A stretch of 64,000 nucleotides of DNA from an uncultured Lentimicrobiaceae bacterium (GTDB lineage: Bacteria; Bacteroidota; Bacteroidia; Bacteroidales; SKPS01), in NCBI GenBank assembly GCA_964652685.1, contig CAZZBS010000013.1, positions 2,933 through 66,932 on the forward strand. Direction: 5' to 3'. Below, one piece after another: positions 3,704 to 15,822 of this stretch. The notes beneath the pieces were generated by a model. It saw nothing but the letters and a program-made list of their open reading frames with translations, was not told the DNA's origin and made no database searches. The translations under genes were made by a program, and so were the position numbers. How positions within the stretch are numbered: position 1 is the first letter of the stretch; each line of letters opens with the position of its first letter.

Positions 3704-3953
3704 GGTGGAAGCGGATTGATGTGCTTCAAAGGTAAGCATTTTTTGGTGTAATGGATTCAGTGTACCATCTTTCATACTTTTTACCTTTCTAACAGAAATA
3801 TATACAGACATATAGAATTAGTCTTTGCTGACAGCCAGCCCGCTGATGTCAGATGGGACTCCGTCAGGAGTAATAACCCCTCTTTCAGCAATAAAGCTTA
3901 CCTTTGTGCTCACTATAGTTCATAGAGATTCAACCATCATAAAAGATATCCAA

Positions 3954-4442
3954 ATGACAACTTCTGTTATCACTGAGCAGGAAATATTTGACATACAGCA
4001 GGCATGGGGAGAAGGTGTTGTAAAAATCGGAAAGGTTTATGCTGAAAATGGCGATTACAAATCAACTGCTGTCGAATTCATTAATGTATTTTACAATTAT
4101 CAGGAAAGTAGTGTTTTGTTTAAGCCGACGCTTGTGTCGGAGAAGCAATTTCGAACTGAGTTTGACGGAGCGTTGTCCTATTTTATTAGTGGGGATGAAC
4201 ATTACCCCGAAGACCATGGGTTTGCCATAAAACCCTGGAGTAAGGTCCGCTGGGAAAATATTGGAATAAGAAGCATTGGCAATATGGCTGTTGCAATGGG
4301 CAACTATTATTTCACACCTGCAAAGGAAGGGGATGATGTGAAAGCAGAATATTCATTTGCATACACGAAAAACAGGGAAGGCAAATTAAAAATTATTCTG
4401 CATGACTCACATTTGCCCTATAAGCCTGTAGAAAAACATTGA
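3954..4442 (+). CDS. COG4337-like (iota-class, SnoaL/NTF2-like fold) carbonic anhydrase candidate
   Basis: AWGEGVVKIG, VLFKPTL, GALSYF, YPEDHGFAIKPW, AMGNYYF, and C-terminal LHDSHLPY (family typically LHHSSLPY). ATG 3954 chosen as the start. Confidence 0.65.
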   Translation: MTTSVITEQEIFDIQQAWGEGVVKIGKVYAENGDYKSTAVEFINVFYNYQESSVLFKPTLVSEKQFRTEFDGALSYFISGDEHYPEDHGFAIKPWSKVRWENIGIRSIGNMAVAMGNYYFTPAKEGDDVKAEYSFAYTKNREGKLKIILHDSHLPYKPVEKH

Positions 4443-4606: not shown

Positions 4607-5731
4607 TCATGGCTTCAAAGGAATCTCGACCCTGAAGGTTGTCCCTATGTCCGGTTTACTCTCCACCGTAATGGTTCCTTTGTACAATTCAACCATCTTT
4701 TTAGCAATAGACAGTCCTAATCCACTTCCGGTAATATGCTTTGTCTTCTGGTTCCTGATCCTTACAAAATCCTGCATCAACATTCCCATTTCCTCCTGTG
4801 TCATACCTATACCTGTATCCTCAACAGTGATCGTTACAGATCCATTGCTTTTTCTCAGGTCTATAAATACGCTTCCGTTCTCCTTGTTATATTTTACAGC
4901 ATTTGAAACAAGGTTATTGAAGATGATCTCCATTTCATTTTGGTCGGCATTTATAATAATGCTCTCATCACCTTCGAGGGTTACTGTGATATTATGTTGA
5001 ATTGCCAGGGGTTCAACAGTATCGGCAACATTCCGTGCAATATCCACAAGATCAACAGGATGGATGTCTCGTTTTTTAACGCCTGACTCCATGCGCGTAA
5101 GGTCAAGCAGATCGAGAATGAGGCCACGCATCCCCTTGATCCTTTCAATAGACCTTTCTATCATCTCCATGTAATCATCAATCTGATTGCCGACCTGTTT
5201 GTCTTTCATTATTTTCAGGTATCCTTCAACGGCATTTATCGGTGATTTCAATTCATGAGACAGTACCGAAAGGAACTGAAAGCGAACACTCTTTCCCTCC
5301 TCCTTCATGCGGCGGGTCATCCGGCGCAGATAAAGATGTTTGGTGATGTTTTCAACGGATGTCTTCAGTTCCTGTGGGGTGAATGGTTTCGGAACAAAGT
5401 TATATGCTCCCTGATTTGTAGCTTTTATTGCCAGTTCCAGTGATGCGTAAGATGTGATCATGGTTACTGCAATATCGTAGTCTTTGTTTTTGATGTATTC
5501 AAGAACCTCAATACCCTGGATCCCCGGAAGTTTATTGTCCAGCAGGACAATGTCGATATTTGTGCTGTCGATGATTTCGATGGCTTTTTCACCGGTACCT
5601 GCCTCAAGGATATCATACGTGAAGTCCTCTTCCATGAATGGGTAGCTTACGGAATAATTCCGAAGGGCCCTCACGATGCTCGAGATTATCCCGGGTTCAT
5701 CGTCAACGACAAGAAGTTTTAACTTGTTCAT
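4607..5731 (-). CDS. Cytoplasmic hybrid histidine kinase (REC-HisKA-HATPase)
   Basis: N-terminal receiver (LVVDDE, LLDNKLPG, KP), H-box SHELKSP, N-box NLVSNAVKYN, G1 DTGIG, G2 GSGLGL. Confidence 0.9.
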   Translation of the reverse strand: MNKLKLLVVDDEPGIISSIVRALRNYSVSYPFMEEDFTYDILEAGTGEKAIEIIDSTNIDIVLLDNKLPGIQGIEVLEYIKNKDYDIAVTMITSYASLELAIKATNQGAYNFVPKPFTPQELKTSVENITKHLYLRRMTRRMKEEGKSVRFQFLSVLSHELKSPINAVEGYLKIMKDKQVGNQIDDYMEMIERSIERIKGMRGLILDLLDLTRMESGVKKRDIHPVDLVDIARNVADTVEPLAIQHNITVTLEGDESIIINADQNEMEIIFNNLVSNAVKYNKENGSVFIDLRKSNGSVTITVEDTGIGMTQEEMGMLMQDFVRIRNQKTKHITGSGLGLSIAKKMVELYKGTITVESKPDIGTTFRVEIPLKP

Positions 5732-6052: not shown

Positions 6053-6550
6053 TTATCCGATATGTTTTTCAATTTCATATAGAATTTTCTCAGCATCAAT
6101 AGGTTTCCTGACAAAACCCTTTACAGGAAACCAGTGTGAATTTCCTTGTTCGTCCATGTAATCAATACCGGCTGTATTGTCTACCACATTTTTTACCAGT
6201 ATTACCCTTAAATCTTTGAAATCGGGATTTTTGCGATATTCTCTTGCCATCTCCTGTACACTTGATTTGGAGGTCATAAGAATATCAATTGATGACTGAA
6301 TAAGGAAAGGGATATCTTTGAACTCATCACTGGAGAGCATCTGCCTTGCAAGTTCAAAACCTTCGTAAGGTGTTGTCATCATAACGTCAAGAATGGCAAG
6401 ATCCGGCTTTTCATTCCTGAGCATTTCAATACCCTCTTTACTGTTGCAGGCAGTTATGACCTGATAACCTTTTGATGTAAGAATGGTCTTAAGGGTGAGC
6501 AGGATATCTTCATCATCGTCAACAAGAAGGATTTTTTTTGTATTTTCCAT
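6053..6550 (-). CDS. Single-domain response regulator with an internal insertion
   Basis: ILLVDDDEDI, ILDVMM and RKP receiver motifs; no output domain. Confidence 0.85.
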   Translation of the reverse strand: MENTKKILLVDDDEDILLTLKTILTSKGYQVITACNSKEGIEMLRNEKPDLAILDVMMTTPYEGFELARQMLSSDEFKDIPFLIQSSIDILMTSKSSVQEMAREYRKNPDFKDLRVILVKNVVDNTAGIDYMDEQGNSHWFPVKGFVRKPIDAEKILYEIEKHIG

Positions 6551-6657: not shown

Positions 6658-7116
6658 CTACCAGACTTCAGTATATGCAGCATTGGTATAAATATTTTCA
6701 AGGCGCACTTTATGCCCTTGTTCCATTATTGCAAGCTGAAGAAATACCTCCTTTTCATTCTGATTTTCGATGGCATCAGCAAATCCCTGATACATCAACA
6801 TTGCCTCCTCCTCCTTTTTCATAGCCAGGGCAATTCCTTCTGCAAACGACATATCGGAAGTGAGAGGTGGGAGCTCTGTTGATTCAGCAATCTTATAGTC
6901 TGAGGTACTGGCTTTGAAGTTTAATTTCAACGACTCGTTCATGACAAATCCTTCGAGTGTCCGCTTATGGTTCAACTCCTCTTCGGCAAGTTCACGAAAA
7001 GTTCCTTTGAGATTATCTGACTTGGCTTTCAGGGAAGCACTGAGATAGAATTCATAAGCCTCTATTTCGTTTTGGATCGCCATTTTTAGTATCCTGTGAT
7101 AATCCGCATTGTTCAT
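6658..7116 (-). CDS. Rubrerythrin/ferritin-like diiron protein
   Basis: AIQNEIEAYEFY, LAEEELNHKRTL, AMKKEEEAMLMY, EQGHKVRL (ExxH pairs). Start trimmed to ATG 7116. Confidence 0.85.
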   Translation of the reverse strand: MNNADYHRILKMAIQNEIEAYEFYLSASLKAKSDNLKGTFRELAEEELNHKRTLEGFVMNESLKLNFKASTSDYKIAESTELPPLTSDMSFAEGIALAMKKEEEAMLMYQGFADAIENQNEKEVFLQLAIMEQGHKVRLENIYTNAAYTEVW

Positions 7117-7203
7117 GTTGTTGTTATTTTTGGTTAAGAAACTCTTGATTGATAAGTCATTCAAATAAATAAACGAAGAGTTAGATATTGGGACAAAAAT
7201 AAA

Positions 7204-7244
7204 AAAATGTATCATAACAATCAAATTCCGGGGCGATACATTTT
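7204..7244. promoter_or_regulatory. 10-bp perfect inverted repeat with a 21-nt spacer in the divergent fdh promoter region
   Basis: AAAATGTATC at 7204-7213 and GATACATTTT at 7235-7244. Confidence 0.4.
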
Positions 7245-7391
7245 GCATCATATTAGGAATGATTTTAAATAAGCTGTCCTGAGTGCCAATCATTACTAAT
7301 TTTGGGTTTTTTTTGTTTTGTTTTCTAATTTTGCTCATTGTACCCATACGGTTCATCAGTGGCAGAACTTAATCAACAAATTCATAACATC

Positions 7392-7796
7392 ATGGAACCC
7401 ACTATTGTACTTTCAGTAAAATGCCCGCATTGCAAAACCTCCCTAATGGATGACAGTACCATCCTGAAAGGAAAACCGGGAATAAGAATTAACATTGAAA
7501 CTGAAAAGGAGCGAGGGGTTCTATGGTTATGCCCAATATACAACTGTTTTACCCATAAAAGCAATATTGAGATTGCAGATGATGAACCGGTTAAATTTTT
7601 CTGCCCTCATTGCAATAAGAGTCTTAACAGCGACATAAGATGCAAGCTTTGTGATGCATCATTGGTGGATTTGAATATCAACATAGGTGGCAAGGTGCAT
7701 GTCTGTTCGCGAAAGGGGTGCAAAAATCATTTTGTGGTTTTTGAGGATCTGAATGATGCGCTGAGGCTTTTATACGATAAATTCGACAACCAATAA
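7392..7796 (+). CDS. Small Cys-rich metal-binding protein, first gene of the fdh operon
   Basis: CPHC, CPIYNC, CPHC, CKLC, CSRKGCKNH. Stop lies 17 nt upstream of the FDH start. Confidence 0.7.
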   Translation: MEPTIVLSVKCPHCKTSLMDDSTILKGKPGIRINIETEKERGVLWLCPIYNCFTHKSNIEIADDEPVKFFCPHCNKSLNSDIRCKLCDASLVDLNINIGGKVHVCSRKGCKNHFVVFEDLNDALRLLYDKFDNQ

Positions 7797-7813
7797 AACC
7801 AAAATCAATTTTT

Positions 7814-10534
7814 ATGGAAAATACAGTCAAGGTTAATATTAATGGCAAAATGCTGGAGGCCAGACAGGGAAAGACTGTGTTGGATGTTGCCCGTGAGAAC
7901 AACATCTACATACCTACTCTTTGTTATCATGCCAGGACAGGGAAAGCAGGCAAATGTCGTGCATGCCTTGTTGAGGTTGAGGGTTTACGGGGATTGAAAG
8001 AGAGTTGCGCCCTGGAGGTCAAGGATGGTATGGTGGTAAAAACCCGTACCGACCAGATCATTGAGATCAGAAAAATGATCGTTGAGCTTCATTTGTCAAA
8101 TGGTGAACATAACTGTATTGCATGTGAGAAGAATGGTCATTGTGAATTACAGGACATGGCCTATCATCTTGGCATAGAGAGGCCGGGGGTGTTGGTTGAT
8201 CACGACAAGATTCCTTTGGATGTTTCATCAGAGGGGATTATCAGGGAACCGGGGAAATGCATTGAATGTGGAAGGTGCATCCGCGCTTGCAACAACAATG
8301 TGATGCATGAGGTTCTTGATTTCGGCTGGCGTTCGGATCACATCCGGGTAATCTGTGACGATGACAAACCGATGGGAGAGTCATCATGTGTGCAGTGCGG
8401 TGAATGTGTACAGGTATGTCCGGTAGGGGCACTTACCTTCAAAAACGCCAAAGGTATGGGTCCATACTGGGAGCTTGAAAAGACAAAGGTTATCTGCACC
8501 TACTGTGGGGTTGGATGTTCTGTGGATATGTTCACAAAGGACAACAGGTATGTATACTCCATGGGAACAGAGGAGAACTGGGAAGGTTATGCCAATAAGG
8601 GAATGTTATGTGTCAAGGGGCGTTTTGGTTTTGACTTCCTGAATCGTGAAGACAGGTTGGATTCACCATTGATCAGGAAAAACGGGAAGCTGGAGAAAGC
8701 GGGCTGGGATGAGGCGCTGGATCTCGTAGCCGAAAAATTCAGCACCATCAGGGCAGAGCATGGTGCGGGATCGATAGGTTTCTTTACCTCCGCCAGAATA
8801 TCAAACGAAGAGAATTATGCACTAATGAGGTTCGCAAGGGGGGTTGTTGGCAACAACAACATCGACCATTGCGCCCGACTGTGACATAGCTCTACGGTTG
8901 CGGGACTGGCAATCACGTTAGGTTCAGGTGCAATGACCAATAGCATGCAGGAAACTGAAGATTCAGACATTATTTTTATTATTGGCACGAACACAACCTG
9001 GAACCATCCGGTTTTCGGAGGTATGATCAAAAAGGCTGTAATGCAGAAGGGGGTTAAGCTTATTGTTGTTGATCCCCGTGACATCGGCCTTTCAAAATAT
9101 GCTGACATCCACATGAAGCAGAACCCCGGTTCAGACAACGCCCTTTTAATGGGCCTTCAGCATATTATCGTAAAAAACAACTGGCACAACAAGGCATTTA
9201 TTGAAGAGAGGTGTGAAGGATGGGATGAATACCTCCAGAGCCTTGATTTTTACACACCCGGGAAGGTTGAGGAGATAAGCGGTATTCCTAAGGAGCAGTT
9301 GTATGAGGCTGCAAAGCTTTATGCCACATCCGGACGGGGTGCTGTCTTTTATGCAATGGGTATTACACAGCACTCACATGGGGTTGACAATGTAATGGCA
9401 GTAGCAAATCTGCAGATGATATTAGGCAATTACGGACTGCCCGGTACCGGTGTTAATCCGCTTCGTGGCCAGAACAACGTGCAGGGAGCATGTGATATGG
9501 GTGGATTACCAAACGTATTCACAGGTTATCAGCCTGTTGTAAATGAGGATGCACGCAAGAAATTTGCTGAAGCCTGGGGAAAGAAGCCTGAGGAAATGGA
9601 TGACAAGGTCGGGCAGACTGTTACCACAATGGTCCAGAATGCAGGTGATTCCATCAAGGCTCTTTATATTGTCGGAGAAAATCCCATGATGTCTGACCCA
9701 AATCAGAATCATGCAAAGAAGCAGATGCAGAAGCTCGATTTCATGGTTGTTCAGGACATCTTCCTGACGGAAACTGCCCAGATAGCCGATGTTGTCTTAC
9801 CGGCTTTTGCATTTGCTGAGAAGTACGGTACAATCACCAATACTGAGCGAAGGGTTCAGTTTACAAACAAGGCGCTCATAGGCCCTGCGGGTGCGAAAAG
9901 TGATCATGAAATTATTGCAGCCATAGCTAAGAGGATGGGTTGTGAAGACTTCCCGGAAACTGTTGATGAATTATATGACGAGATACGAAAACTGACTCCC
10001 TCTTATGCCGGCATTTCTTATGAGAGGATAAGGAACAGCGCAGGCCTCAGATGGCCATGTCCGACTGAAGAACACCCCGGGACACCCATACTGCATATTG
10101 GAAAGTTTGCCCGTGGCAAAGGGCTGCTTAAACCTATTGAATACAAGCCGCCGTCCGAATATGCAGATACGGATTATCCGCTGGTCCTTACCACAGGACG
10201 GTTATTGCAGCATTATCATACCGGGTCAATGACAAGGCGCTCAAAGGTGTTGAATGGTATCGTTCCATCCGGGATGATTGAAATAAACGCTACTGATGCC
10301 AAAGCACTCAATATTAAGAACGGCGAAAAAGTAAAGGTCTCATCACGTCGTGGCACTATTGAGATCACTGCTCTGGTAACCACAAAGATCAAAAAGGGGA
10401 TAGTCTTTATACCCTTCCATTTTGCAGAAACTGCTGCCAATATTTTAACCAATGATGCTCTTGACCCTGTAGCAAAGATCCCGGAATATAAGGTTTGTGC
10501 CGTTAAGGTCGAGAAGATTGAAGAGTGTTGCTAA
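7814..10534 (+). CDS. fdhF: Selenocysteine-containing formate dehydrogenase alpha subunit (NuoG-like Fe-S N-terminus plus Mo/W-bisPGD domain)
   Basis: ORFs 7814..8884 and 8933..10534 are in frame, and the TGA at 8882-8884 falls in IDHCARL-U-HSSTVAGL, the FdhF catalytic Sec position. Also CTYCGVGC, PLRGQNNVQGACDMG, LTTGR and MPFH-like FIPFHF, plus N-terminal 2Fe-2S and 4Fe-4S motifs. Confidence 0.93.
8882..8914 (+). promoter_or_regulatory. Bacterial SECIS element
   Basis: Hairpin GGTTGC (8896-8901), loop GGGACTG, GCAATC (8909-8914), starting 11 nt after the UGA with a G-rich apical loop, as in the E. coli fdhF SECIS layout. Confidence 0.8.
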
Positions 10535-10551
10535 TAATAATCCCCAGGTAA

Positions 10552-12282
10552 ATGAAGAAGGAATTAATAAAAAGAATAGAAAAGATCATGGGCAGATATC
10601 CGCAGAAGGAATCTGCCCTGATGCCTGCCCTGATGCTTGTTCAGAAAGCAAATGGAAACAACCTGTCAAAGGAGGATGTTGCGGAAATTGCCGACATCAT
10701 TGGTATACCGCTTTCAAGAGCATTTGGTGTTGCAACCTATTATTCAATGTTCAATGTTGAAAAAGGGATTGGGAAATACCATCTTCAGGTTGACACCAAT
10801 ATTCCTGCAACCCTGATGGGGGCTTTGGATATTTACAATTACTTGAGTGAAAAGTTAGGCATTAAGCACGGAGAAACAACTCCTGACGGACTTTTTACCC
10901 TTTCTAAGGTTGAATGTCTTGCCTCTTGTGGCACTTGTCCGGTGGTTCAGGTTAACGACGTTTATTATGAATTGATGACCCGGAAGAAAGTTGATCTTCT
11001 GATCGATTCATTGCGCAACGGAATAATGCCTGACCTGCCGGTGGAATATCATTACGAATCGTTGTGCAATGTTCTGTTGAAAAACCGTGGTGTTGAAAAT
11101 GCCACTTCAATCAAGATTTATAAGGAGCTCGGCGGGTATAAGACACTTGCCAAAGCTTTAAAGATGAAACCTGAAGAAATCATTCAGGAGGTAAAGGATT
11201 CTCAGTTGCGTGGGAGGGGTGGTGCAGGTTTCCCGACAGGGATAAAATGGGGTTTCCTTCCCAAAAACACGGATAAGCCGGTGTATCTTATCTGTAATGC
11301 AGATGAAGGTGAGCCGGGTACTTTCAAAGACAGGCAGATTCTTGCCTATGACCCACACCTTCTTGTTGAGGGAATGGCGATTACTGCTTATGCATTAGGG
11401 TGTAAACTTGCTTTTATCTATATCCGTGGTGAATTTTCATGGATTGCAGAGATATTGGAGAAAGCTATTGCAGAGGCAACGGCTGATGGACAGTTGAAGC
11501 ACATGGATGACATCATTGTTCACCAGGGTGCCGGTTCATACGTCTGTGGCGAAGAAACAGCCCTTATAGAGTCTATTGAAGGCAAGAGAGGTTTTCCCAG
11601 GATGAAGCCACCATTTCCCGCAGTGGAAGGATTGTATCATTGTCCGACCATCGTGAACAATGTTGAGACACTTGCAAGCGTACCCTATATTATTCAAAAC
11701 GGAGCCAACGCCTTTAAACAATGGGGTTCCGAAGGGGGGTACGGATTTAAACTGTTCGGTGTTTCAGGTTGCGTGAATAAACCTGGTGTTTACGAGTGTC
11801 CGATGGGGATCCCTTTCAGCAAGCTTATTGAGATGGCCGGAGGTATAAAGGGTAAGATGACAGGCGTTATTGTAGGGGGACTTTCTGTACCTCTGCTAAC
11901 AACTGAAGAGCTTAAAAAAGGTCCCGGATTGAAGATGGATTATGAATCATGTTTCGACTACGGAACATCCCTGGGGTCCGGTGGTGTAATGGTTATCAGC
12001 GATGAGTTCTCCATCCCGGAGATAGCTGTCCGTACCATGCAGTTCTATAACCATGAGTCGTGCGGACAGTGTACACCATGCAGGCAGGGTTCCAGCATGA
12101 TGCTCAGTATTCTTAAAAAAATCATAGACGGCAAAGGCGAATCCGGAGATATTGATAAAGTTTTATGGCTCTGTAACAATATTAAGGGCAACACACTTTG
12201 CCCGACAGGTGAAGCATATTCATCCCCGATAAAAACCATGATCAACAAATTCAGAAAAGAATTTGAAGAATTAGTAAAATAA
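10552..12282 (+). CDS. NuoE-NuoF fusion (FMN/NADH-binding diaphorase subunit of the FDH)
   Basis: NuoE part VATYYSMF...VECLASC. NuoF part RGRGGAGFPTGIKW, NADEGEPGTFKDR, YVCGEETAL, NNVETLA, ESCGQCTPCRQG...LCPTG. Confidence 0.88.
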   Translation: MKKELIKRIEKIMGRYPQKESALMPALMLVQKANGNNLSKEDVAEIADIIGIPLSRAFGVATYYSMFNVEKGIGKYHLQVDTNIPATLMGALDIYNYLSEKLGIKHGETTPDGLFTLSKVECLASCGTCPVVQVNDVYYELMTRKKVDLLIDSLRNGIMPDLPVEYHYESLCNVLLKNRGVENATSIKIYKELGGYKTLAKALKMKPEEIIQEVKDSQLRGRGGAGFPTGIKWGFLPKNTDKPVYLICNADEGEPGTFKDRQILAYDPHLLVEGMAITAYALGCKLAFIYIRGEFSWIAEILEKAIAEATADGQLKHMDDIIVHQGAGSYVCGEETALIESIEGKRGFPRMKPPFPAVEGLYHCPTIVNNVETLASVPYIIQNGANAFKQWGSEGGYGFKLFGVSGCVNKPGVYECPMGIPFSKLIEMAGGIKGKMTGVIVGGLSVPLLTTEELKKGPGLKMDYESCFDYGTSLGSGGVMVISDEFSIPEIAVRTMQFYNHESCGQCTPCRQGSSMMLSILKKIIDGKGESGDIDKVLWLCNNIKGNTLCPTGEAYSSPIKTMINKFRKEFEELVK

Positions 12283-12342
12283 CCTTCTCAATAATTTATA
12301 ACCTTTATTCATCAACAAACAAAACCAAAAGGAGATTGAATT

Positions 12343-13170
12343 ATGTCAAACAAACCAAGCGAAATTGTATTGGGCTGTATTAATGCCGGATCGTACAAAG
12401 CAAATTTGAATATTAAGAATTTGTTATTAAGAGGATTTATGGCAGGTTTGTTCATTGCTGTTGGAGGTGCTCTTGCAACAGTATGTGCAACAGGAATTGA
12501 AACTGCCGGCATCAAACAACTAGTTCTGGGATCAGTCTTCCCCGTAGGACTCATCGCGATCGTGCTAACCGGAATGTCTCTTTTTACTGGTGATACAATG
12601 CTTCTGCCCATGTCTGCTATGCACAAGCAAATTACATGGTCGAAAGTACTTTGGGTATGGCTTATTGTCTACATTGCCAATTTTATCGGTTCAGTATTCT
12701 GGGCCTACCTGATGAATGTTGGTCCGTTCGCAAAACTGGATCCTGCAACAGGTATGCAATCCCTTACAGTTTTTGGAGAAAGTGCCGTAAAGATCGCTGA
12801 AGCCAAAGTATTAGGTTATAAGGCAGCAGGTGCCACAGGATTATGGTCAGCTTTTATGAAAGCCATAGCCTGTAACTTGCTTGTTAATACTGCCATAATC
12901 CTTGCTTTCTCATCAAAAAGTATGATTGGAAAGTTCTTTGGAATATGGTTCCCGATCATGGCCTTCGTTTCTTCAGGATTCGAACATAGTGTAGCCAATA
13001 TGTATTTCATTCCTGCTGGTATTTTTAGCGGAGCTAATGTTTCATGGGGTGAGTTTTTAACATGGAATCTCGCTCCTGTTACACTTGGGAATATAGTGGG
13101 AGGTATGATATTTATTGGTGTAGTATATTATTCATGCTATAAAAAAGAACTTCCCGGTATTGCAGAATAA
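12343..13170 (+). CDS. fdhC: Formate/nitrite transporter (FdhC/FocA family)
   Basis: GSVFPVGLIAIVLTGMSLFTG, KAIACNLLVN, FPIMAFVSSGFEHSVANMYFIP, PVTLGNIVGG. Confidence 0.9.
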   Translation: MSNKPSEIVLGCINAGSYKANLNIKNLLLRGFMAGLFIAVGGALATVCATGIETAGIKQLVLGSVFPVGLIAIVLTGMSLFTGDTMLLPMSAMHKQITWSKVLWVWLIVYIANFIGSVFWAYLMNVGPFAKLDPATGMQSLTVFGESAVKIAEAKVLGYKAAGATGLWSAFMKAIACNLLVNTAIILAFSSKSMIGKFFGIWFPIMAFVSSGFEHSVANMYFIPAGIFSGANVSWGEFLTWNLAPVTLGNIVGGMIFIGVVYYSCYKKELPGIAE

Positions 13171-13192
13171 CCATCTTTCTGAGAACTAATAA

Positions 13193-13219
13193 GGGGCTGC
13201 CAATAAAAAAAGCAGCCCC
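13193..13219 (+). terminator. Probable terminator of the fdh operon
   Basis: 8-bp GC stem GGGGCTGC/GCAGCCCC just after the FNT stop; the U-tract is weak. Confidence 0.55.
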
Positions 13220-13340
13220 ATATTCATTTTATAATACTTTGATTTAATAGGTTTACAAGTCAACTCATCATGCACTGTCAGCAAAAGAAAAGTATCCTAT
13301 AAATGGTCATTATCAGCCATTCCTGGATATATAGTAACTC

Positions 13341-14522
13341 ATGATACAACGGCCTGACTTCATTATAATTGGTTCCACTGGCAGAAACACCGGTAAGACT
13401 GAATTTGCGTGCCGGTTGATAGAGCGGTACGCAAAAACCAATAAAATATATGGAGTTAAGGTGGTTACCATAGACCCCGATGAGGGTAACTGCCCCAGGG
13501 GCGGGAAAGGTTGCGGGGTTTGCACCTCCCTGAAAAAAAATTTCGAGATCATTGAAGAGAATCAGATTTTACCGGGCAAAGACACATCCAGGATGCTTGC
13601 GGCAGGTGCGATAAAAGTTTTTATGTTGAAAGTGAATCAGCATGCACTGGAAGAGGGGATAAATGCATTTATAAAACTTGTTCCGGATGATACGCTTGTA
13701 GTCTGTGAATCAAACTCTGTAAGAAAAGTTGTTGATCCCGGGCTTTTTCTGGTTATAAAAAATGTCAGGGAGAAACGGATAAAGGAGAGCTGTGCCGAGG
13801 TAATCGACTATGCAGACAAGGTGATAGATTTCCTGGAAATGAATTGGAATTTCTCTCCCGAGAGGATATATATACGTGATAACAGTTGGCAAATACGGGA
13901 GAATGCCACTGCAATCATCCTGGCAGGTGGTAAAAGCACAAGGATGGGTGGTGAAGACAAAAGTTTATTGCCTGTGAATGGCATACCATTGATAGAACAT
14001 ATATCAAATCAACTGAAAGGACATTTTGATGAAGTTCTGATCGGTGCCAATGATCCGGAGAAATATTCCTTCCTCCATCTGCGGGTAGTACCGGACATTG
14101 AAGCAGGTAAAGGCCCTCTTATGGGTATTTTATCATGTCTTGATGCTTCAGATAGTGAATTGAATTTCATAACAGCCTGCGATATACCAGAGATGAACAT
14201 TAAGCTTATAAGAAGAATGATAAATCTGGCTTCTGATGCCGACATTGTAATGCCGGTCAGCGAAACTGATAAGTACGAGCCTTTATACGCCATATACAGG
14301 AAATCTGTAGCAGGATTTGCACGTAAGGTGTTGGGTAATAATAAACGCAGAATAATAGAACTATTCGATTACACCAGGGTTACGTTTACTGAGTTCAAAG
14401 AGGATGACTGGTATCAGAATATAAATCTTAAGGAAGACTACGACAGTTTTGTGAAAAAGCGCGAAACAAGGCAATGTGACAGAGAAGATGATGATCGTTT
14501 TTTAGCTCAACATTTTGTTTAA
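13341..14522 (+). CDS. mobA: Fusion of an uncharacterised Cys-motif P-loop domain to molybdenum cofactor guanylyltransferase MobA
   Basis: C-terminal half: ILAGGKSTRMGGEDK, GKGPLMGI, TACDIP, EPLYAIY, NIN. N-terminal half: GSTGRNTGKT and CPRGGKGCGVC. Confidence 0.8.
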   Translation: MIQRPDFIIIGSTGRNTGKTEFACRLIERYAKTNKIYGVKVVTIDPDEGNCPRGGKGCGVCTSLKKNFEIIEENQILPGKDTSRMLAAGAIKVFMLKVNQHALEEGINAFIKLVPDDTLVVCESNSVRKVVDPGLFLVIKNVREKRIKESCAEVIDYADKVIDFLEMNWNFSPERIYIRDNSWQIRENATAIILAGGKSTRMGGEDKSLLPVNGIPLIEHISNQLKGHFDEVLIGANDPEKYSFLHLRVVPDIEAGKGPLMGILSCLDASDSELNFITACDIPEMNIKLIRRMINLASDADIVMPVSETDKYEPLYAIYRKSVAGFARKVLGNNKRRIIELFDYTRVTFTEFKEDDWYQNINLKEDYDSFVKKRETRQCDREDDDRFLAQHFV

Positions 14523-14634: not shown

Positions 14635-15822
14635 ATGACAACAAAACGGTTACTTCTAATGGTTTTGGTGATGATATTCATTACCCCTGTTATAAATGCG
14701 CAGGATAAAGAAAAAGAGGGTGACAAGAAGTTGGTCCTGATCCCTTATGGATTTGTAAAAGGAGATATGTTTTATTCCACTGCCGAGGTGACTTCGTTTG
14801 GTGTCCTGAGTCTTGCTGCCCCTCAGTTAGCCACAGGCGGTGAACAGAGTGCAATAGGTTTTACTGCGCAACACTCGCGTCTTGGACTTCGTGGTAGTGT
14901 CGGCGAGAAGATCAAAGCAGGAGGTCTTATTGAGATGGATTTTTTCACAAATGCATTTGATGCAAACGGAAAACCCCGCATCCGGCTCGGTTATGCATCC
15001 GTTTCCAAAGGAGGTTTCGAAGCCCGTTTAGGACAGCAATGGGACCTTTTTTCCCCCAATAACGCTTTTACCAACAATACGAATGGAAATATGTGGTTTG
15101 CCGGTAACAGGGGCTTTCGTAGAGCGCAAATCCAAATGAGCTATAAATATGATTTAGGCGATTTTGTTCCGATGATACAGGCATCAGTGGGCGAAGGAGC
15201 AAGAGACAATGAGGGCCTGGGAAAAGACAACCTCTCCGGCATTCCGATGATACAGGCCAGGGTATCCGGATTGATTTATAAAAAATATACTATTGGCGTA
15301 TCCTATGTTCAGGCAGGATTTCTTGAAAAAAAAGGCTCCAATATCGTAATACAAGATAGTACCTGGATTTTACCATCTGATTATACCGCTACTACAACCG
15401 GAATAGGCATAGATTTTAATGCACCGGTACATAAGTATTTTGCATTATCAGGTGAATTCAATATAGGGACTAACCTTAATAATGCTAATTTATTTAACAT
15501 TGCCGGTAATTATTCATTTAAAGATGTAGCAGGGAAAGCCAGTCTCGTTAATAAGGAGAGTATTGGCTTGTGGTTTAATGCACGTTCACAGGTTACTGAT
15601 TGGATGCGTGTTGTCGTAGGTTATGGTTTTGATCAGAATACTACGGAAGGTTTAGCGGATGGCTCATTAGAGAAAAACAGTGTTATCTATGGCAATTTAA
15701 CATTTCCCGTTAAACATGGCTTTTCAGTTGCCGTAGAGTTCCAGAATATTACCGGCAAAAGAATTAATGCTGATGATTTGGTCGCTAATATAATCAGCTT
15801 ATCAGCATCAGTCAGTTTTTAA
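14635..15822 (+). CDS. Outer-membrane porin (DcaP-like)
   Basis: Signal peptide, YGFVKGD, QHSRLGL, IEMDF, PRIRLGY, LGQQWDLF and a terminal Phe. TAAGTTTG promoter box at 14575-14582. Confidence 0.7.
   Translation: MTTKRLLLMVLVMIFITPVINAQDKEKEGDKKLVLIPYGFVKGDMFYSTAEVTSFGVLSLAAPQLATGGEQSAIGFTAQHSRLGLRGSVGEKIKAGGLIEMDFFTNAFDANGKPRIRLGYASVSKGGFEARLGQQWDLFSPNNAFTNNTNGNMWFAGNRGFRRAQIQMSYKYDLGDFVPMIQASVGEGARDNEGLGKDNLSGIPMIQARVSGLIYKKYTIGVSYVQAGFLEKKGSNIVIQDSTWILPSDYTATTTGIGIDFNAPVHKYFALSGEFNIGTNLNNANLFNIAGNYSFKDVAGKASLVNKESIGLWFNARSQVTDWMRVVVGYGFDQNTTEGLADGSLEKNSVIYGNLTFPVKHGFSVAVEFQNITGKRINADDLVANIISLSASVSF

Follow-up and report, generated by a model that had tools for sequence, protein, structure and literature searches.

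Formate dehydrogenase (FDH) is the most common bacterial selenoprotein. Here we describe an FDH gene, fdhA, whose reading frame contains a UGA codon that is very probably read as selenocysteine (Sec), in the metagenome-assembled genome (MAG) of an uncultured Lentimicrobiaceae bacterium of the order Bacteroidales (assembly GCA_964652685.1). The gene lies on contig CAZZBS010000013.1 (C13), of which positions 2,933 to 66,932 of the forward strand were analysed; this stretch of 64,000 nucleotides is called the window, and positions refer to it unless another contig is named. Among the described enzymes, Escherichia coli FdhH (FdhF, Sec140) has the same MopB catalytic module as FdhA (1aa6_A, E 8e-155) and the same Sec-His pair at the metal site, but it is devoid of a NuoG-like N-terminus and its partner is the formate hydrogenlyase complex instead of a NuoE/NuoF diaphorase. 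The Sec insertion sequence (SECIS) of E. coli fdhF is, as we understand it, a short hairpin that follows the UGA within the coding sequence and spans the V-A-G-L codons, with SelA, SelB, SelC and SelD as the decoding factors, an arrangement presumably shared by the gene described here.

The closest solved full-length architecture is that of the tungsten enzyme FDH1 of Methylorubrum extorquens (7vw6, 7e5z), a soluble two-subunit NAD-linked enzyme whose alpha subunit matches residues 4-902 of FdhA (7vw6_A, E 1.4e-203) and whose beta subunit (7e5z_B, 572 aa) is a NuoE/NuoF fusion with the layout of the 576-aa FdhB encoded next to fdhA. FdsABG of Rhodobacter capsulatus and Cupriavidus necator (6tg9, 6vw7) also combines a NuoG-like subunit, FdsA (E 1e-196), with NuoF/NuoE-type partners and carries out NAD+-dependent, reversible CO2 reduction. 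It differs in having separate FdsB and FdsG subunits together with FdsD and FdsC, whereas NuoE and NuoF are fused here and FdsD is not seen in the locus. Characterised M. extorquens FDH1 presumably uses Cys and not Sec at the metal site, and we take the FdsABG enzymes to carry a Cys ligand as well. The present locus has the FdsABG/FDH1-type layout, that is, a NuoG-like N-terminus of the alpha subunit and a NuoF/NuoE-type diaphorase partner with flavin mononucleotide (FMN); because Sec (UGA) stands in place of Cys, we class it as a Sec variant that works like the FdsABG/FDH1 type, without counting it among the characterised Cys enzymes. The F420-dependent FDH 9t1s_L shares a non-standard residue at the Sec position, but is archaeal, couples to F420 through another partner and has no NuoG-like N-terminus.

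Sec decoding has rarely been recorded in the phylum. An early survey found the trait in no Bacteroidetes (Zhang 2006, PMC1794560), and the supplement of a later one (Peng 2016, PMC5029168) lists six Bacteroidetes with the Sec trait, namely Chryseobacterium taeanense, Cyclobacterium qasimii, three Dyadobacter and Spirosoma linguale, of which none belongs to Bacteroidales and five are without a detected selenoprotein gene. These strains share SelA, SelB and SelD with the Lentimicrobiaceae bacterium, but in the latter the machinery accompanies a clear Sec-type FdhA. Our full-text literature searches retrieved no explicit report of a Sec-containing FDH in Bacteroidales or Lentimicrobium.

A single reading frame with an internal UGA

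Two open reading frames (ORFs) under translation table 11, 7814..8884 (356 aa) and 8933..10534 (533 aa), share one frame on the forward strand, and translation of 7814-10534 with TGA as U yields 906 residues with a single recoded codon, U357. The codon (8882-8884, +) is a candidate Sec codon at the position of the molybdenum or tungsten (Mo/W) ligand, in the context ...NNIDHCARL-U-HSSTVAGL..., and corresponds to the in-frame UGA that a preliminary description of this DNA had noticed at the catalytic position CARL-U-HSST. The complete fdhA (7814..10534, +; 906 codons) encodes a NuoG-like 2Fe-2S/4Fe-4S N-terminus joined to a Mo/W-bis-molybdopterin guanine dinucleotide (bis-MGD) catalytic module, with the Pfam domains Fer2_4, NADH-G_4Fe-4S_3 and Fer4 followed by Molybdop_Fe4S4, Molybdopterin and Molydop_binding; PF04879, PF00384 and PF01568 each exceed their gathering thresholds. 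The read-through product matches the NCBIfam equivalog TIGR01591 (Fdh-alpha) over the entire model (825.7 bits, cut-off 666.25; model positions 1-672 of 672). The best PDB match of its catalytic module is 9t1s_L (E 4.9e-224), in which U357 aligns to the non-standard residue X (CARLXHSATV). U357 is followed by H358, and this alignment also shows the stretch with the active-site arginine, NPLRGQNNVQGACDMG, to be conserved; the arginine motif RGQNNVQG is present, and we take its active-site Arg to be the counterpart of Arg333 in FdhH. By inspection of the translation, FdhA shows no N-terminus of the twin-arginine translocation (Tat) type.

The TGA is spanned, without a single difference, by contigs of two landfill metagenomes that come from a separate study, and the codon is therefore not an assembly error. 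Moreover, a biogas-fermenter run labelled as RNA-seq (flagged 'RNA?', so that DNA is possible) yields contigs identical to most of 7300-13300, consistent with transcription of the fdh locus.

A conserved hairpin follows the UGA

A candidate SECIS hairpin is found at 8896..8914 (+), separated from the UGA by an 11-nt spacer and composed of a 6-bp stem, GGUUGC (8896-8901) with GCAAUC (8909-8914), and a 7-nt loop, GGGACUG (8902-8908). It is the minimum free energy (MFE) structure of the 40 nt starting at the UGA (-7.2 kcal/mol). The published model of bacterial SECIS elements (bSECIS; PMC13188914) prescribes an apical loop of 3-9 nt, an upper stem of 4-16 bp, a G within the first two nucleotides of the loop, a UGA-to-loop distance of 16-37 nt, and an MFE of at most -7.5 kcal/mol; the loop (7 nt), its leading G, the stem (6 bp) and the UGA-loop distance (17 nt) are all within these limits. 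A fold of 59 nt reaches -11.9 kcal/mol through extra lower pairs. This extended lower and middle stem is broken in three orthologues by a G-to-A change at alignment column 48 (8917 in the window), and hence only the 6-bp upper stem was retained.

The sequence downstream of the UGA, ACGGTTGCGGGACTGGCA, is almost invariant in 14 close Sec-type MAGs, whose proteins are 76-95% identical to FdhA (compared over two fdhA segments). Across 16 Sec-type orthologues, 98.9% of the alignment cells pair and two pairs are changed on both sides; none of 500 shuffles scores as high in paired percentage or in covariation, and registers slid along the alignment pair to at most 66%. We also scanned the gene for synonymous-codon entropy in blocks of 8 columns, restricted to the 470 columns where the residue is conserved and its codons are degenerate. 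Entropy averages 1.29 bits and falls to its minimum for the whole gene, 0.10 bit, at codons 359-368, so the lowest synonymous variation of fdhA coincides with the hairpin. For three Sec forms the MFE structure is this hairpin, but for the two Cys forms folded it is not. Two more distant TGA forms at 49-51% identity, from the Bacteroidales genomes G793 and G581, carry another stem sequence at the same position with the loop GGUCU; the loop of the present hairpin, GGGACUG, differs from the GGUC-type loop of E. coli fdhF. In G793 the gene encodes an intact FdhA (49% identity) and the hairpin has seven perfect base pairs. The SECIS-like hairpin that the preliminary description had reported directly after the UGA is accordingly present, and is backed by covariation and synonymous constraint.

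An Rfam scan of the window returned no matches. To our knowledge Rfam holds no bacterial SECIS family, and this null result is therefore uninformative.

Selenocysteine machinery and genetic code

The genome comprises 2.89 Mb in 53 contigs and is about 97% complete, with an estimated contamination of 0.83%. A tRNA-Sec gene with anticodon UCA is located on contig C35 (C35:14067-14161, -) and recovered both by Rfam RF01852 (full length; 61.5 bits, gathering threshold 47) and by ARAGORN as tRNA-SeC(tca). The same contig carries selA (514.8 bits, cut-off 267.9), selB (C35:10469-12445, -; 313 bits, cut-off 242), a selD of the Cys type (GCSVK; 367.6 bits, cut-off 125), a cysteine-desulfurase/selenocysteine-lyase-like gene (TIGR01977, 476.5 bits against 377) and yedF (TIGR03527, 205 bits against 110). 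All six genes form a single cluster in one direction (tRNA-Sec, selA, selB, lyase-like gene, yedF, selD). It had been noted before that the window itself contains no selA, selB, selC or selD, which holds: every match to tRNA-Sec, selA, selB and selD above cut-off is on C35, and no weaker sel match is on C13 among the matches listed. Because of the C35 cluster, the genome is not one lacking Sec machinery, and the earlier proposal that the organism decodes Sec agrees with a full set of genes encoded above curated cut-offs.

The C-terminal 300 residues of SelB are conserved in relatives. An AlphaFold2 model built from a 5-sequence alignment has a mean predicted local distance difference test score (pLDDT) of 77.8, with values of 80-90 in the C-terminal half, and displays four helix/beta-hairpin units in the C-terminal part. 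Its top fold match is full-length bacterial SelB (5lzb_z; E 5e-41, TMq 0.70, 652 columns), followed by 4zu9. The model thus predicts four winged-helix SECIS-binding domains at the C-terminus, which could represent a lineage-specific SECIS-binding region fitting the GGGACUG loop.

TGA is the stop codon of 410 of 1000 long ORFs in the genome, indicating that the standard code applies; a global reassignment of UGA is ruled out by this share of 41%. Further Sec genes were sought in four coarse genome screens, which would miss small or atypical genes and revealed no second selenoprotein. Scoring of 4703 in-frame TGA sites by codon usage was too noisy (FdhA ranked 287th), while a shadow-ORF filter, used together with the spacing between the TGA and the following ATG, reduced the list to 17 candidates. 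On reading, every one of them other than FdhA looks like two neighbouring genes, a signal peptide or recognisable N-terminus appearing shortly after the TGA. A genome-wide list of redox motifs with hairpins contained nothing convincing, and alignment of intragenomic Cys paralogues to TGA gave nothing credible. That FdhA is the only selenoprotein is, given such coarse screens, a tentative conclusion. One gene pair was also seen on contig C19 (+), where a rhodanese-domain ORF ends in ...KSKGGC-TGA (TGA at about 7677) and a YeeE/YedE-like membrane protein begins ten codons further on in the same frame; we read these as probable neighbouring genes for sulfur or selenium handling and not as a Sec codon. 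With these searches, the two genomic checks suggested in the preliminary description have been carried out: selA, selB, selD and tRNA-Sec were all located on C35, and the scan for other UGA/SECIS genes produced no second candidate.

Distribution of Sec-type FdhA and of selA

The equivalent of codon 357 is TGA in 14 Bacteroidales MAGs (identity again segment-wise) and in the two distant forms of G793 and G581, and TGC or TGT in the Cys forms. In the phylogenetic tree, the 14 close Sec-FdhA sequences constitute one clade (support 99/100). The clade extends over several families. Its sister is the Cys form of a further Bacteroidales MAG, followed by Cys forms of Planctomycetota, Fibrobacterota and Hydrogenedentota. 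A separate Cys-type paralogue clade, about 40% identical and with CTRLCHAST in the two members inspected, is widespread in the order.

An even sample of the phylum yielded selA in 1 of 400 other Bacteroidota genomes. Within the same order, selA was found in 45 of 400 other genomes (~11%), from about 25 families; this sample looks family-stratified and hence the figure is not a species-weighted prevalence. The earlier statement that the Sec trait is uncommon in Bacteroidota therefore stands for the phylum as a whole and needs qualifying for the bacterium's own order. As 45 of the 400 sampled order genomes carry selA, the trait is recurrent in environmental Bacteroidales and no singular oddity.

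Nine of the genomes sampled from the order have TGA as the Sec-site codon of FdhA, and eight of these carry selA, compared with 45 of 400 overall (Fisher p = 1e-7), and selA is present in all three genus mates. One genome of the same genus, G499, possesses selA, but no FdhA homologue was found in it other than a Cys-type paralogue of 39% identity (CTRLCHAST); either its Sec-FdhA is absent from the assembly, or another selenoprotein sustains the trait.

Sec use may be a long-standing, largely vertical trait of many uncultured anaerobic Bacteroidales families, sustained in the present genome by FdhA as the only selenoprotein, although we hold this wider proposal tentatively, at slightly less than even odds. 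Under such a scenario, reliance on cultured genomes and the splitting of the gene by gene callers would explain why the earlier surveys missed the trait.

Alternative explanations

We consider 7814-10534 to be one intact FDH gene in which UGA 357 is read as Sec and the hairpin serves as SECIS, with a probability of roughly 93%. Several observations weigh against this reading. Sec at position 357 is a prediction from sequence, and the RNA-labelled contigs leave 8830-8987 uncovered, the UGA included. The hairpin energy is no better than that of shuffled sequences (z -0.18 for 40 nt and z +0.42 for 59 nt), for which reason we relied on comparative evidence instead, and -7.2 kcal/mol for 40 nt is a borderline value that narrowly misses the bSECIS limit. 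Conservation of the V-A-G-L-A peptide imposes some of the pairing and, by inspection, Cys homologues retain four to five of the six stem pairs; the hairpin alone is therefore not diagnostic, while the synonymous constraint is. The C-terminal half of SelB was missed by sequence models (Pfam and the PDB sequence search) and is assigned solely from its predicted fold. G793, a genome of the same order (92% complete, 420 contigs), has TGA at the Sec site with no selA detected. Finally, fdhA and the sel cluster are on separate contigs of a 53-contig MAG, and the GC content of C35 (50.5%) is the second-highest of all 53 (bin 47%, contig range 43.5-50.8%).

If the UGA simply terminated translation, the locus would be a pseudogene or a truncated pair made up of an Fe-S protein of 356 aa and perhaps a 533-aa fragment with an initiation site of its own. 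Two proteins are indeed what gene callers and public databases list, and an ATG follows 16 codons past the TGA. However, the TGA and an otherwise open frame of 900 codons are kept in 16 species-level lineages down to 49% identity, termination would split the catalytic domain between its 4Fe-4S and Mo-binding parts, and both the synonymous constraint over the hairpin and the presence and co-occurrence of the Sec machinery argue for read-through; we regard a broken gene as very unlikely. Cys is functional at position 357 in the closest non-Sec homologues, so one might also suppose that the UGA is read as Cys, Trp or Gly without selenium, through a reassigned code or near-cognate suppression. Such decoding is hard to reconcile with the use of TGA as a stop in 41% of the long ORFs, with a dedicated tRNA-Sec, SelA, SelB and SelD, and with a downstream hairpin conserved only in TGA forms, and it seems extremely improbable.

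The two points on contigs and GC content, together with a tetranucleotide distance of C35 above the median, would suit a chimeric bin in which the sel cluster stems from another organism and the genome is unable to decode Sec. The contamination estimate of 0.83% speaks against this, and C13 itself deviates from the bin mean as much as C35 does. The closest SelA homologues among 185,579 species genomes are from Bacteroidales MAGs, the best of them from a Lentimicrobiaceae MAG that also holds a 94%-identical FdhA, the closest one; the closest SelB homologues are likewise all from Bacteroidales MAGs. The tRNA-Sec gene adjoins selA in all four Bacteroidales genomes with the closest SelA homologues. 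With selA also present in the genus mates and in nearly all order genomes with a Sec-site TGA, as given above, we attach minimal weight to a foreign origin of C35, and retain the reading of fdhA as a Sec-decoding gene served by the machinery of its own genome.

Partner genes and gene neighbourhood

The gene fdhB (10552..12282, +) starts 17 nt past fdhA, a pairing conserved in relatives, and encodes a 576-aa NuoE/NuoF fusion (TIGR01959, 513.8 bits; TIGR01958, 149.5 bits). Its Pfam domains, 2Fe-2S_thioredx, Complex1_51K, SLBB and NADH_4Fe-4S, provide a 2Fe-2S centre, an FMN/NAD(H) site and a 4Fe-4S centre. FdhB appears to be without the extra ferredoxin-like domains of bifurcating HydB-type subunits, and the enzyme is best read as a non-bifurcating formate dehydrogenase/CO2 reductase, soluble in the cytoplasm and linked to NAD(H), with a putative Sec ligand. 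Its specificity for NAD is inferred, and its metal may be Mo or W. Physiologically it may oxidise formate or, in syntrophic communities of digesters, produce formate as a sink for electrons.

Further downstream, 12343..13170 (+) encodes a formate channel of the FocA/FNT family (TIGR00790, 213 bits, under the cut-off of 232.3; TIGR04060 FocA, 150.6 bits). It is followed by a fusion of a MobB-like P-loop domain and MobA (13341..14522, +), in which the MobA part covers residues 188-372 (NTP_transf_3 at residues 191-338, 126.7 bits; TIGR02665, 119 bits, under the cut-off of 151.85), while the N-terminus has the P-loop GSTGRNTGKT and a weak MobB match; the fusion is kept in relatives. The locus ends with a 395-aa secreted protein (14635..15822, +) that has a signal-peptide-like N-terminus and the C-terminal ...SASVSF, matches no Pfam or NCBIfam model, and is found downstream of MobA in eight Bacteroidales relatives (52-63% identity). 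Judging from these features it is probably an outer-membrane beta-barrel, and it may be a porin that serves the formate module specifically. A 152-aa zinc-ribbon ORF with a TTG start (7338..7796, +) immediately precedes fdhA, here and in nine Bacteroidales relatives (50-88% identity); its one Pfam match, to the double-zinc-ribbon, is sub-threshold, and its product could assist or regulate the FDH. The Bacteroidales relatives share the gene order orf152-fdhA-fdhB-...-mobA-orf395.

Divergent genes upstream of the locus encode a rubrerythrin-like protein (6658-7356, -), a stand-alone response regulator (6053-6550, -) and a receiver-histidine kinase hybrid (4607-5731, -), of which the rubrerythrin-like gene and the response regulator recur near the fdh locus in several relatives. 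A 205-aa ORF at 3825-4442 (+) has no significant Pfam family, only DUF4440 at E 0.01.

Taken together, these components suggest the following course of events. SelA would make Sec-tRNA from Ser-tRNASec with the selenophosphate of SelD, and the hairpin, acting as SECIS, would bring SelB-GTP-Sec-tRNASec to a ribosome that has paused on the UGA. Codon 357 would then be decoded as Sec, the ligand of a Mo or W bis-MGD cofactor for which the MobB-like/MobA protein may supply MGD. Electrons from formate would pass through the NuoG-like Fe-S chain of FdhA to the FMN of FdhB and on to NAD+, the reverse reaction, reduction of CO2 to formate, may also take place, and the FocA-type channel would move formate. 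The mechanism is that of the standard bacterial Sec system, and nothing in it is new.

Annotation and significance

The preliminary description had anticipated that automated pipelines would miscall the gene as broken, and public records do hold it in fragments. In a public protein collection it is stored as separate products of 356 and 533 aa, and the C-terminal piece from a related MAG is recorded at NCBI as a 531-aa 'molybdopterin-dependent oxidoreductase'. FdhA is an ordinary kind of selenoprotein, notable only for its host, an uncultured anaerobic member of Bacteroidales, for a trait barely recorded there and for the split gene calls. The published picture is updated by a coherent, under-recorded Sec-FdhA clade in environmental Bacteroidales. 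Because the records of this MAG and of the related one split the gene and give it a generic name, metabolic reconstructions of Bacteroidales from digesters, landfills and wastewater would overlook an NAD-linked FDH together with its selenium requirement. If Sec use is indeed a long-standing trait of these families, the supply of selenium could limit the formate-based electron exchange of Bacteroidales in digesters, landfills and sediments.

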